Source: Candidatus Lindowbacteria bacterium RIFCSPLOWO2_12_FULL_62_27
GTDB taxonomy: Bacteria; Lindowbacteria; 2-12-FULL-62-27
Direction: 5' to 3'
Assembly (NCBI GenBank): GCA_001784175.1
Contig: MFPR01000009.1
Span: forward strand, 1-48,616
DNA length: 48,616 bases
Part shown: positions 1,704 through 5,805 of the stretch, in pieces
Numbering within the stretch: position 1 is the stretch's first letter
Layout: every line of letters starts with the position of its first letter
Program-made: the position numbers and the translations under genes
Notes under the pieces: model-generated
The model's input: only the letters and a program-made list of their open reading frames with translations
What the model was told of the DNA's origin: nothing
Database searches by the model: none

Positions 1704-2177
1704 CTATTTTGATAAATTGCCTTTGACTACCGCCACCAGTGTGGCTTTTGGATCGGGTTTCACCATAGTGGAAGTCGCTTTTGCTATGTCGTCGCCGGCA
1801 GCATACGAATTACTCCCACCATTGAGAATAAGCTTACAACTATACCCGGGAACTATCTTAGCCTTCTCGGATTCAGTCACACTTGGCCAAACGGTCGACG
1901 AGGATTTCCACTGCCCGGAAATCACCACATCGCCCTTGTACGCGCCGTCCTTAAGGGTAACTTCCGTTTTAGAATTTCCAGTCAGATAATCACCCGCTGT
2001 GACGTCACATTGGACGCTCGCTACCACTCCCGCCACGACCTTCGAGAGTTCGACGGGCACAGTGATCTTGAAGTTATACGCATCCCCCGCCTGCGCCACC
2101 ACAGCGGTCGCCGCCAAGCCGGCAATCACCGCTGCGACACCGACGGCGGCCAACCCGAACATCTTCGTCTTCATCAT
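1704..2177 (-). CDS. Secreted hypothetical protein, paralog 2
   Basis: GGAGG at 2181-2185; ATG at 2177 or 2174; same signal peptide and shared VPVE.SKVV.GV..SV.C.VTAG and STVWP.VT.SEK motifs as paralog 1. Confidence 0.82.
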   Translation of the reverse strand: MMKTKMFGLAAVGVAAVIAGLAATAVVAQAGDAYNFKITVPVELSKVVAGVVASVQCDVTAGDYLTGNSKTEVTLKDGAYKGDVVISGQWKSSSTVWPSVTESEKAKIVPGYSCKLILNGGSNSYAAGDDIAKATSTMVKPDPKATLVAVVKGNLSK

Positions 2178-2259
2178 CCACCTCCGACATCCAACATTTT
2201 CAGCCGCGTCTGATGACCGGCCTATTGAGAACCACGAATGAACATCTATAAAAAGACCT

Positions 2260-2628
2260 GTAAAGGGGAACAGACTTCCCCCGTCGCCCATGGAAGGGCG
2301 AAGTGCGCTTGATGTGGACCGGGCGTCGACGGTGGACATTGTCGAATCGCCGAGAGAGCTCCCCGAAGGGAGGGTTACAGCGGTCATGAGTCTTGACTCC
2401 ATCTCGAACAGGTTTCCTGTGTTTGCCAGTCATCTATACGTGACTCGTCCCGATCTGGAAGATCAAGACGGCCGATGGAAACAAATGGGCCTGACAGGCC
2501 GGGGCCGATCCACGAATAGAGGCTGTGAGCCGATACATTCGTCGGGACTCTCCGGCCGGCCTTTCGGAGATGGAGCGGGGATTCGTCAGGAAACGAATTG
2601 CCCCGTCCGACTTCGACCGAAAGAGTTG
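2260..2628 (-). ncRNA. Putative bridge RNA/seekRNA of the IS1111-like element (boundaries approximate)
   Basis: Target matches cacgaat (2511-2517) and cattcgt (2536-2542) flank a small hairpin (2521-2531); catctata (2431-2438) matches the IS end junction. Confidence 0.68.
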
Positions 2629-3657
2629 TCAGACCTTGTTCGGATTGAATTCCTCCCCTGTGTTCCAAAGATGAAGCAAGATCGAGAGGATCTTGCGTTG
2701 CGTCGTCAATCGAGCCACATGTTCTTTCAGCCCCGCTTCGCGGCGCCGCCGATAATAATGGGCGATGGGATTGTCGCCCTGAGCCGTGCGAAGCGCGCCC
2801 AGAAACGCATGGCGAGACATCGTCTTGAGAGCCTTGACCCCGCCGGTCGTCAGATGCGGTCGACCGATGGATTTGCCGGCCGATTCCTTGGAGACGACCT
2901 TCAATCCCGCGTAACTCCACAGATCGTGTTTGTCGGGAAATCGTTTGGGAATCTGGACAAACGCGAAAAAGGTGCAGGCGCCGATCGTCCCAACTCCGGG
3001 CACGGCAGTAAAACGGGTCACCTCCGGAAAGCGCCGTCCCTGTTCGATCATCTGCCGTTCCGCCTCTTTCTCCTGCTGTTCGAGTTGGTCCAGCCGATCG
3101 TAGGCATGGCGAAGGCGTGCCTGCGCCGACTCCGGCAGTTGCTTCATGATCACCTCGCGTGGCCCGGAATTGTAGACCAAATACCCCTTGGGAACCACTC
3201 CGTACTCTCTGAATTTGGCTTTGATCCAGTTCTTCAGTCGTGTGCCTTGCCGAACCAGATGCTCTCGATACTGGACGGCCCGTTTGAATTCGACCAGACC
3301 GTGATCCAGGCTGTGGTGGACGCGGCGAAGCGTTCCGAGCCGATACATCGTGGCCAGCTTGTAGGCGTCCAGCCGGTCCGACTTCATCCCGGACGTGATC
3401 CACTTGTTCTGTTTCGGCTCGCTCACAAACACGTCGGCGGAATGGGGACTGAGCGTCTCCACAAACCACTGCGCCATCGTCGATTCTTCCAGGACAAAAA
3501 CCGCCTCTGGAAATCGGTGGGCGAGCTTGATAAGGTTGTAGGCAGTTGTTTGAAAGCTGACCGGCTCGATCACGACGCCGGTCAAATCCGTGACGCACGC
3601 CTCGCAGATGCGAGAGTGCGCGTCCAATCCAATGATCCTTTTGATCGATCTCTGCAT
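2629..3657 (-). CDS. IS110-family transposase (RuvC-like DEDD + Transposase_20-type domain)
   Basis: IIGLDAH, VLEES and KSDRLDA acidic motifs; VPGVG; SYAGL...ESAGK serine motif; AGGAGG RBS. Confidence 0.95.
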   Translation of the reverse strand: MQRSIKRIIGLDAHSRICEACVTDLTGVVIEPVSFQTTAYNLIKLAHRFPEAVFVLEESTMAQWFVETLSPHSADVFVSEPKQNKWITSGMKSDRLDAYKLATMYRLGTLRRVHHSLDHGLVEFKRAVQYREHLVRQGTRLKNWIKAKFREYGVVPKGYLVYNSGPREVIMKQLPESAQARLRHAYDRLDQLEQQEKEAERQMIEQGRRFPEVTRFTAVPGVGTIGACTFFAFVQIPKRFPDKHDLWSYAGLKVVSKESAGKSIGRPHLTTGGVKALKTMSRHAFLGALRTAQGDNPIAHYYRRRREAGLKEHVARLTTQRKILSILLHLWNTGEEFNPNKV

Positions 3658-3723
3658 AGTGATCGACCTCCTTTGTGTGTAGTGTCATGAACACTGCCAC
3701 AAAGCGAGGTCTTTTTTTATTAC

Positions 3724-3799
3724 CACGAATGGGACGAATGGTACGAATAACCCCATTTTTTTATTCGTGTAATTCGTTTCATTCGTGCAATTCGTGTTC
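3724..3799. repeat. 9-nt periodic inverted repeat (ACGAAT units versus ATTCGT units); target of the IS
   Basis: acgaatggg acgaatggt acgaat ... attcgtgta attcgtttc attcgtgca attcgtgttc; a fourth left-arm unit lies at 2233-2244 on the other side of the IS. Confidence 0.8.
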
Positions 3800-3843
3800 A
3801 AAAGATTTGACACAGACCGTGTGACAAATAGACATGCATCGCC

Positions 3844-5805
3844 TTACTCCTCATCTTCCGTGCTCGCCGACGACGATCCTGACGTGACCTCGCCCATCTC
3901 GGCCTCCGGCGTGATCGTCAGCGTCAGCGGCGCGAGCGCTTCCGCCGGCGGCGGGGGCGGCGTGTTGACCTGAACGGTTGCGTCCGCCTTGTTGCCGTCT
4001 TCATCGGTCACGCGCGCCACATCAGTGACGCCGCCTGTGACTCCCGCGGTGTACGCGCCCGTTGCGGCGTTGATGGCCGCGCCGGACTTGTTGTCCGCGA
4101 TCGAAAACTTCAGCGTCCCCACGCCGCCCGTGGCGGTGAAGGATACCGGCTCTTGGATCATGATGCTCGATGTCTTCGGCGCGATCTCCAGAGCCGGCAC
4201 GACATTGACGGCGGCTTCCAGGAAATGTCCGCCGGCGTCCGTGACGCGAACGACGTCGGTCACGTTGGCTCTTGTCCCGGCCGTATACAGTCCCGTCGCG
4301 GCGTCGATCTTCGCGCCGGACTGGTTGTCCGGCACTGAGAACACGTAACTCCCAAGGCCGCCCGTGGCGGTGAATTGGACCGCCGCGTTCACCATCACGA
4401 CCTTGGCCTCAGGCGAGAGCGTCAGCGGCGGAAGGATTTTGACTTTTCCGCTCGCGCTGTTTCCGGCCTCATCGTATACCGCCACAACATCTTCAACCCC
4501 GTATTTCTTCCCCGCGCGATACAATCCGGTCACGGCATCGATCGTCGCGCCTGACTTGTTGGCGACAATGGCATACCGGTAGTGTCCGCCGCCGCCGACC
4601 CCGACAAACGTAACGGCGTCGCCGGACAGAACTTCGGAGTATTTGGGCGCGATGTCCAGACCTCCCGGCGCGACCACGAGAATGATCGGGATGCGCGGGT
4701 CGAACTCGGAGTAGAGTTTCGGAGGATACTCGACGATCAATCCAGCATCGACATCCCGCGCGATGAGACTCCACCGGTATTTTCCCGGCTCGGCCGGCGC
4801 CGCCATGTCGAACCGGGCGGTCACCGTATCCAGCGCGTTCACATTGATCGTGCGCGAAACCGTAGCGGCGTCGCGGCCCTCTTTGGAGATGCTCAATTCC
4901 AGTTTGATCCGGCGTTTCCGCGGTTCGAGGCTTGCGACCTGAAACTCGGCGGAAAATGCCGCATTGGGCGCAAGCGTGCGGCGGTCGACAAAGGGGCCCT
5001 TGATCACGATATCGCGTTTTGCGATCCGAATCGCGCATTCGCGAATCGATGTCACATCCGCATCGATCGTGACGGACTTGAGGCCCGGATCGACGCGAAC
5101 CGTCGCGTCCGAGACTTGGTCCTGCTCATCCCGGACGCGGACGACGTCCACAACCGGAGCGGCGGCGTTTCCCGCGACATACCGGCCGGTCTTGGGATCG
5201 ATCCGGCCGTTCGAGCGGTTTTCCACGAAATCATATCGATGAACATTGCCGCCGCCCAGGGTATGAAACTCGACCACGCCGCCGGGCGGCGCCATCACGG
5301 TCGCGGGCGCCATGACCAAAGGGCCGATGATCGTCGTCAGATGCCGGCGGCCGGACTCCGGATACGTCAACGACGCGCCGGATTTTTTGTCGGCCACCGT
5401 CAGGCGAAAGTCATACCCGCCTTCGAGGAACGGCGCAGCGATGTGAAAGACCATCGAGCCGGACTGGCCGGCGCCGAGTTTGAGGGTCTGCGCGTCGCCG
5501 CGCGCCGTGATTTCGGCGCCCGCACCCAAAATGACGAGTCCTCCGACGAACTCGCCGGGTTTGTCTCCCTTGTTCGTCACGCCGAACGTGATTTCGAACT
5601 TTGAATTCGACATCACGTTCTTCGACACCGCGCTCGGCCCGGACACGGCGATGGTCGCCGCGCCTTTCTTCGTCTGGGATTCCGCCGCCCGCGCTTGCGG
5701 CTGCTGCGTCAAAACCGGATAGACCGCGCAAAAAACAAATAACAACAACAAGGAAACCAGCATTCGCCGTCTGAAGCAGATGCTCAAGCTGCACCGTCCC
5801 TTCAC
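3844..5805 (-). CDS. Secreted/surface protein with Ig-like domains and four GG..Y....NKSGA.ID..TG.Y.AG....DVVRV.D modules
   Basis: Hydrophobic N-terminal signal segment; four related ~78-aa modules; Pro-rich acidic C-terminal tail. Confidence 0.85.
   Translation of the reverse strand: MKGRCSLSICFRRRMLVSLLLLFVFCAVYPVLTQQPQARAAESQTKKGAATIAVSGPSAVSKNVMSNSKFEITFGVTNKGDKPGEFVGGLVILGAGAEITARGDAQTLKLGAGQSGSMVFHIAAPFLEGGYDFRLTVADKKSGASLTYPESGRRHLTTIIGPLVMAPATVMAPPGGVVEFHTLGGGNVHRYDFVENRSNGRIDPKTGRYVAGNAAAPVVDVVRVRDEQDQVSDATVRVDPGLKSVTIDADVTSIRECAIRIAKRDIVIKGPFVDRRTLAPNAAFSAEFQVASLEPRKRRIKLELSISKEGRDAATVSRTINVNALDTVTARFDMAAPAEPGKYRWSLIARDVDAGLIVEYPPKLYSEFDPRIPIILVVAPGGLDIAPKYSEVLSGDAVTFVGVGGGGHYRYAIVANKSGATIDAVTGLYRAGKKYGVEDVVAVYDEAGNSASGKVKILPPLTLSPEAKVVMVNAAVQFTATGGLGSYVFSVPDNQSGAKIDAATGLYTAGTRANVTDVVRVTDAGGHFLEAAVNVVPALEIAPKTSSIMIQEPVSFTATGGVGTLKFSIADNKSGAAINAATGAYTAGVTGGVTDVARVTDEDGNKADATVQVNTPPPPPAEALAPLTLTITPEAEMGEVTSGSSSASTEDEE

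Follow-up and report, generated by a model that had tools for sequence, protein, structure and literature searches.

The DNA analysed here, referred to as the window, comprises 48,616 nucleotides (nt) of Candidatus Lindowbacteria bacterium RIFCSPLOWO2_12_FULL_62_27 (contig MFPR01000009.1, positions 1 to 48,616), and it holds at 2245-3725 an insertion sequence (IS) in minus-strand orientation, which measures 1481 base pairs (bp) when one copy of a CA/TG core dinucleotide is counted. A single long open frame, detected by Pfam as the gene of a DEDD transposase or bridge recombinase of 342 amino acids (aa), occupies 2629-3657 on the minus strand and has a GGAGG-type ribosome site 9 nt ahead of its ATG. 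It is preceded by 68 nt (3658-3725) and followed by a non-coding region of 384 nt (2245-2628), in which the core of a predicted bridge RNA, or long seekRNA, of ~179 nt is situated (2397-2575, minus strand). Near its two ends the element carries a subterminal inverted repeat of 13 nt; the left-end arm in transposase orientation (3707-3719) is, with one mismatch, 92% complementary to the right-end arm (2247-2259). Subterminal repeats of ~7-17 bp and a longer non-coding region on the 3' side of the transposase gene are characteristic of the IS1111 group, and both were found here. It is proposed, with a probability of about 0.88, that 2245-3725 is an IS1111-type element of the IS110 superfamily in which the bridge recombinase gene is followed by the element's own guide RNA. 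The name IS1111 group is supported by the architecture and by the order of the guides described below, and is not to be read as a phylogenetic placement.

The left junction reads ...ccacgaatgaaCA|tctataaaaagacct, with CA at 2243-2244, and the right junction aggtctttttttattacCA|cgaatggg, with CA at 3724-3725, which leaves the position of the boundary ambiguous by the 2-nt core. Three observations bear on these ends. A relative from a different genome within the host's GTDB family (L004, identical to L002) is 85.5% identical over 1483 nt; the alignment takes in exactly the element and one more copy of the core, the flanks being unrelated, and the subterminal inverted repeat is kept in this relative. 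In a groundwater metagenome from a separate study (X10), contigs of a ~91% identical relative lose the match at 2243 and 3725 and continue beyond these positions into other sequence. Finally, the genome of the window itself contains a perfect uninterrupted counterpart of the restored site, 23/23 positions across the join, at C4:221513-221535. Because these three independent lines agree the ends can be considered fixed, and the two junctions therefore share only the TG core (CA on the plus strand), without a target duplication. The same TG/CA core is present in L004 and X10. An earlier, sequence-only reading of this DNA had proposed that deletion of 2245-3725 restores ccacgaatgaa-CA-cgaatggg, and had suggested a search for empty sites; the uninterrupted paralogous copy bears this out, and all strings quoted in that reading are present at their positions. 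The IS1111-type RNA-guided element that it proposed is also supported by the Pfam domains, the subterminal repeats, the downstream non-coding region and the 2-nt core without duplication.

The protein matches PF01548 with 51.6 bits (cutoff 29, E = 1.2e-13) and PF02371 with 40.1 bits (cutoff 21.3, E = 4.8e-10), so that the N-terminal DEDD RuvC-like and the C-terminal Tnp domain, which together mark the IS110 superfamily, are both present. In an alignment with IS621 that is weak (E = 0.5) and covers the C-terminal part only, S259 coincides with the serine of the YESG loop; it is invariant in 16 aligned homologs. In IS621, as far as the structure paper describes it, S241 is the nucleophile and G242 forms a hydrogen bond with D102 (PMC11208158). 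The acidic residues at D12, E57/E58, D94 and D97 vary little or not at all among the homologs, and are candidate counterparts of D11/E60/D102/D105 of IS621. The open frame, the conserved serine and the acidic residues suggest that the element is apparently intact. The C-terminal motif (residues 251-261) reads GLKVVSKESAG. For IS1111 transposases the motif is described as GL-P----S(t)G, an occasional TA being noted (PMC11187229); in the present protein GL and the serine are present, V stands for P and A for G. This alanine, A260 (codon 2881-2883), follows the serine of the putative catalytic loop, and nearly all of the 16 aligned homologs have alanine, not glycine, at its position.

The insertion lies within one arm of an inverted array that is built of (C)ACGAAT(G) units. 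One half of the target lies at the right end of the element (2232-2244, ccacgaatgaaCA, reverse complement TG-TTCATTCGTGG), and the other half with the rest of the array extends over 3724-3795, where the units, which resemble repetitive extragenic palindromes (REPs), are arranged as three direct units, a loop and four inverted units. Six such arrays exist in the genome, and in each of them 3-4 direct copies of the CACGAATG unit are separated by a loop from 3-4 inverted copies; the further ones are at C4:108805-108840, C4:221518-221543, C19:52411-52520, C39:9787-9896 and C40:104253-104318 of the genome (G000). The motif that is split by the element, ATTCGTG-NN-CATTCGT, occurs uninterrupted 12 times in the genome. 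The targeting of REP-like palindromes is established in the superfamily according to the accounts of IS621, ISPa11 and ISPpu9 (PMC11208160, PMC11187229, PMC12288879). Metagenome X1 showed a summed contig depth of 377 at 3747-3807, as opposed to ~7 beside it, and numerous short contigs extend from the array region into differing flanks. Because of this depth and the many different flanks, similar arrays seem to be abundant in the community.

The 179-nt RNA core folds with a predicted free energy of -76.1 kcal/mol (z = -3.85), a value that was reached by 1/200 shuffled sequences, and is closed by a 9-bp basal stem (CUCCAUCUC, 2575-2567, with GAGAUGGAG, 2405-2397, minus strand) that is kept in L004. 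Two blocks that match the target sit in an internal loop, which is bordered on the outside by a G+C-rich stem and on the inside by a hairpin of 11 nt (GGCU CAC AGCC, 2521-2531, minus strand), the latter being invariant between the window and L004. The putative 5' target guide, ACGAAUG-UA (2534-2542, minus strand, ACGAAUG itself at 2542-2536), is complementary to the top strand, that is, to CATTCGT of the right flank, with UA opposite the TG core. The putative 3' target guide, UCUAUUCGUG (2511-2520, minus strand), ends in AUUCGUG (2517-2511), which equals ATTCG of the left flank plus the TG core and is complementary to the bottom strand; it is in register over seven contiguous positions. The sequence-only reading had described exactly this arrangement, ACGAAUG-hairpin-AUUCGUG inside an outer GC stem with matches to opposite strands, one of which includes the TG core, and had suggested that covariation of guides and targets be tested across homologs. 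Such covariation was observed in L004 and X10, whose blocks match their own flanks. In L004 the 5' block AAGGGGUCA is fully complementary to its own TG + ACCCCTT, i.e. core and right flank (9/9), and the 3' block ends in AAGUCUG, which equals its own left flank AAGTC + TG (7 contiguous, 8/10). In X10 the guides are an indirect reconstruction, obtained by applying listed variants and loose contig ends to the window sequence. In this reconstruction the 5' block CAAAUGUCA is complementary to its own TG + ACATTTG (9/9, extending to 11 nt) and the last bases of the 3' block, UUAUUG, are identical to its own TTAT + TG (6 contiguous); relative to the window it has five substitutions in the 3' block, and one indel pair and one substitution in the 5' block.

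The replacement of the blocks stands out from the rest of the region. Between the window and L004, 12/18 guide-block columns differ against 46/378 in the remainder of the non-coding region (Fisher p = 3e-7), and the downstream region outside the blocks is ~88% identical. When guides and targets were exchanged between the two elements only 3-4/9 (5') and 4/10 (3') positions matched, the shared TG core included. Of the elements of the window family, 3/3 have the 3' guide in register and 2/3 the 5' guide. Metagenome X7 contains a further variant, with 12 differences over 2491-2598. In the window, L004 and X10 the block that pairs with the top strand precedes, in the 5' to 3' direction of the RNA, the block that pairs with the bottom strand. 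This is the order described for IS1111 seekRNAs, the IS110 type having the reverse (PMC11187229); here and below, the comparison with published IS1111 RNA structures is based on their text descriptions.

A second internal loop could serve to bind the donor. Its putative 3' guide, UAUAGAUG (2438-2431, minus strand), equals TATAGA of the right end plus the TG core (8/8), in agreement with the match to the predicted circle junction noted in the sequence-only reading. In L004 the guide is CAUAGAUG and the right end CATAGA+TG, so that a change of U to C in the guide accompanies a change of T to C in the end. The putative 5' donor guide, AUUUGUUUCCA (2486-2476, minus strand), would pair with the top strand at the predicted circle junction, namely with core TG and left end GTAATAAA, and lies within the most conserved segment in the comparison with X10. 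Between the two lies the inner hairpin of the loop (2442-2473, minus strand, -16.9 kcal/mol); when the window was compared with L004, RNAalifold (pairs 111-142) showed for this donor hairpin one compensatory change (G-C to A-U) as well as two that affect one side only. The loop thus matches both ends including the core, and the match of the 3' guide includes one covarying change. The predicted second donor guide and basal stem are new here and go beyond the sequence-only reading. As a test of chance the 384-nt non-coding region was shuffled 5000 times at the mononucleotide level. A 7-mer identical to left flank plus core was present in 84/5000, a 7-mer complementary to core plus right flank at any offset in 442/5000, an 8-mer donor match in 9/5000, and all three jointly in 0/5000.

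A similar layout was observed in a second family, represented by three metagenome contigs of the Joint Genome Institute (JGI) that carry elements at L007:~400-1940, L008:~596-2152 and L009:~845-2377. Their transposases are 37-38% identical in aa sequence to that of the window, and the elements are 85-90% identical in nt sequence to each other. They are of IS1111 type with a TG core, a left end GC(T/C)TAATGAAAC and a subterminal repeat GGACGCTCC/GGAGCGTC. Their two-loop RNA of ~215 nt is laid out like that of the window element. In the outer stem of the target loop three pairs are changed on both sides relative to the window family (columns 29-31 / 96-98); a longer hairpin takes the inner position of this loop, and the basal stem is analogous with a different sequence. 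The 3' target guides of the three elements fit three different left flanks (6/7, 7/8 in L008, and 7/7). At the donor side the 3' guide UCAGCUG equals the right end TCAGC+TG, and the 5' guide AAUUGCGCCA pairs with TG+GCTTAATG as ||||x:|||.

Taken together, these features suggest the following mechanism. The RNA (~2575-2397, minus strand) would present two internal loops, one for the target and one for the donor. In the target loop the 3' guide AUUCGUG would pair with the bottom strand because its sequence equals left flank plus TG core. The donor loop would read the joined ends of the element, one guide corresponding to right end plus core and the other being complementary to core plus left end. 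A complex of recombinase and RNA would excise the element as a circle, whose junction it would then recombine with a site centred on TG in the REP-like array, without producing a duplication. Joining of the ends could also assemble a promoter. A -35-like TTTACA in the right end (2259-2264, minus strand) meets a -10-like TAATAA in the left end (3717-3722, minus strand) only in the circle, in which TTTACA, 17 nt and TAATAA follow each other across the junction and the TG core ahead of TAATAA makes it an extended -10. Such a promoter would read into the gene and the RNA. A scan of the linear element for sigma-70-like promoters gave none (0); this sigma-70-like criterion, by which the candidate was judged, may not be the consensus of the host. 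Junction promoters are described for the superfamily (PMC12288879, PMC11187229). From the sequence we infer the transcription and processing of the RNA, its binding by the protein, the formation of the circle, the activity of the promoter and the present-day activity of the element. Among the metagenome contigs there was none joined across the element and none with a circle junction; contigs drop rare forms, hence this result is uninformative. Among the sequencing runs listed as containing this stretch there was no RNA run.

A number of results weigh against the proposed reading. The protein scores 133.8 bits with NF033542, 'IS110 family RNA-guided transposase' (full-length match, 8-335), which is below the cutoff of 140, and is, by this model, a divergent member. 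A scan of 1800-4200 with Rfam matched no RNA family; two matches, sucC and PhotoRC-I, were sub-threshold and were dismissed as chance matches. The 5' donor guide pairs as |||x||:|||, that is at 9/10 positions including one G:U and with one mismatch, and in L004 a further change of U to C weakens this pairing without compensation. The candidate -10 ends in A, not T, and would fail the criterion of the scan itself. The covariation is based on three elements of the window family, X10 being indirect, and three of the second family. As to mobility in this host, the genome (94% complete) contains one copy, that in the window, and none further. Finally, the 5' target guide of the window pairs at only 1/9 positions in the register of L004 and X10, and at 7/7 when shifted by +2.

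The last point concerns how the right flank is read. In L004 and X10 the 5' guide ends in CA, which pairs with the TG core, and its preceding seven bases read the right flank contiguously. The right flank of the window is TG-TT-CATTCGT, in which CATTCGT begins two bases further out; UA of the guide can still face the TG core (A-T and G:U). The match of ACGAAUG to the target that the sequence-only reading had claimed thus stands as to complementarity with the right flank and does not as to the register of the relatives, and the 'definable specificity' that it derived is to be qualified in the same way: the guides are readable and track the flanks, with a 2-nt shift of the 5' guide in the window. 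Contiguity of the 5' guide fails in 2/4 elements with a readable right flank, the window and L007, the latter requiring a 1-nt bulge. Tentatively, and with the odds rather against it, the mechanism may be unchanged and the present copy may sit at a near-cognate site, a slipped right flank having been tolerated. The 5' guide would then have been selected in another host on the spacer-free target ATTCG-TG-CATTCGT, and the copy may excise poorly and be stranded. The mismatch in register, the single copy in the genome, the bulge in L007 and the resemblance of the window 5' guide to that of X10 minus one letter beside the core are all in favour of this. Against it, all 12 uninterrupted motifs in the genome carry a 2-nt spacer, and none has a spacer of 0, 1, 3 or 4 nt. 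Because 12/12 have this spacer the guide pair fits the repeat family of the host systematically, which resembles adaptation more than accident. A still more doubtful view is that in this clade the top-strand guide may skip two DNA bases while its last two bases hold the TG core. If this were true, one guide pair would fit every ATTCGTG-NN-CATTCGT unit junction of the host arrays, and, as the periodicity of the target also lets the two target guides pair with each other, the target loop of the free RNA would stay shut until it is opened by the protein, which would amount to a built-in brake. It would also be a flexibility of register not described for target guides; in the published account of IS621 the right donor guide alone is reported to pair discontiguously, with nine RNA bases over seven DNA bases (PMC11208160).

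With respect to the donor side it seems unlikely that only the target loop is functional, as a short seekRNA, the ends being read via subterminal repeats and flanks and the donor matches being incidental. For ISEc11 it is described that an 82-nt seekRNA with target matches alone supported transposition, and that the donor flanks had to match the seekRNA (PMC11187229), both of which would suit such a short RNA. In the present element, however, the donor 8-mer is rare among shuffles, the 3' donor guide covaries with the right end of L004, and in the second family, whose ends differ, both donor positions are likewise occupied by guides that match these ends. Moreover, bridge RNAs are predicted in 93% of IS1111 elements in the survey of Durrant et al. 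(PMC11208160), and the IS110/IS1111 loops reported there as inspected by hand are complementary to target and donor.

That the target matches are arms of a structural stem that resemble the target through its periodicity, with the protein choosing the site, is hardly credible: the window blocks are mutually complementary and pair over 7 bp in the minimum-energy fold, but those of L004 are not mutually complementary, for which reason the plain-stem alternative fails, no such stem is predicted for L004, and the blocks of L004 and X10 each match their own flank in an otherwise conserved scaffold. The caveat of the sequence-only reading, that the two matches could simply form a stem, is thereby removed. 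The guides of the window pair with each other because the target is periodic, and this pairing is best regarded as a by-product of the target and not as the reason for the blocks. The free RNA of the window (2494-2562, minus strand) is predicted to have its target loop closed (-30.6 kcal/mol) and that of L004 to have it open; the closed loop may affect the activity of the window copy.

As an RNA-guided element of IS1111 type the window element can be compared with the systems described so far, as far as the published texts describe them. Reference elements for IS1111 and its seekRNAs are ISEc11, ISPa11 and ISKpn4 (Siddiquee et al., 2024, PMC11187229). With these it shares the subterminal repeats, the long non-coding region 3' of the gene, the size of the transposase (342 aa against 330-350 aa), the order of the guide blocks and their overlap at the insertion point. 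Like ISPa11 it targets a REP-like palindromic repeat, and as reported for ISEc11 and ISXne4 (PMC11187229), in which natural redirection was found, close relatives have been redirected by replacement of the guide blocks. In contrast to these elements it has V for P and SA for SG/TG in the C-terminal motif, and the 5' guide of the window is shifted by 2 nt. The IS621 bridge RNA system belongs to the IS110 group (Durrant et al., 2024, PMC11208160; Hiraizumi et al., 2024, PMC11208158). It resembles the system predicted here in a two-loop RNA of ~180 nt, each loop of which reads both DNA strands including a 2-nt core, in a REP target, and in a junction promoter and a catalytic serine loop (both candidates in the present case). 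It differs in that its RNA lies upstream of the gene, with the guides in reversed order, and its core is CT rather than TG; long subterminal repeats distinguish the window element from it, and the similarity of the proteins is barely detectable. ISPpu9 and ISPpu10 likewise insert at a fixed dinucleotide within REPs and form circular intermediates (PMC12288879), the circle being only proposed here; host and repeat family are different. The antisense or extra small RNAs described for ISPpu9 (PMC12288879) have no evident counterpart here.

The mechanism is a known one, left unchanged by the present finding, and the element is a new one in a sparsely sampled transposase clade. What is added is a readable bridge/seekRNA system of IS1111 type from an uncultured groundwater/soil bacterium of a rare lineage. 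Three natural variants with three guide sets mark exactly which RNA positions would be programmable. An assignment is possible for the two donor guides as well, and the elements are thus useful raw material for screens of bridge recombinase orthologs. The 2-nt shift poses a testable question, namely how strictly the right-flank guide sets the register of cleavage.

Relatives of the transposase are few at high similarity. A word-indexed protein search gave 23 at E <= 1e-30, and an exhaustive search of 1.84 billion representative proteins gave 119 at <= 1e-30 and 4526 at <= 1e-3; the homologs P0001-P0015, most of which come from contigs of 1.4-1.6 kb, are 92-58% identical in aa sequence, P0001 being the closest (92%). 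Among 72,556 plasmid records there was no transposase match at E <= 1e-20. At 1e-4 these yielded 686 records, all with at most 30.2% identity and annotated only as 'IS110 family', which gave no help in assigning the protein to the IS1111 or the IS110 group. The viral contigs contained no matching locus. A single-protein query of genome contigs found one locus, a phylum-wide search of four genomes found two with a match, the window's own genome included, and an alignment query of metagenome contigs found five loci, one of which was the window's own contig. Another of these five (L010, 62% aa identity) is truncated 29 nt after the stop codon and hence gives no information on the RNA. The genome that carries L004 also has an IS110-family transposase with 42% aa identity (L005:1501-2580, G003:C290); neither an inverted repeat nor a similar non-coding region 3' of the gene was found with it, a small gene follows it closely, and it was left out of all counts. 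The close homologs P0003, P0006 and P0009 are encoded on assembly contigs of 1483-1486 nt, near the element length of 1481, as would be expected if the element were multi-copy or circular in those samples and assembly stopped at its ends.

On the minus strand the element is followed directly by the genes of two paralogous small proteins (1089-1559 and 1704-2175), with signal-peptide-like N-termini (MKTKMFGL...). A tblastn search with the translation of 1704-2175, made to see whether the repeat arrays accompany these genes, gave only two copies, both on the window contig; the query was read out of frame and the check is therefore weak. The insertion lies ~70 nt upstream of the start of the second small gene, between this gene and the repeat array, and the element may cut the gene off from its upstream region.

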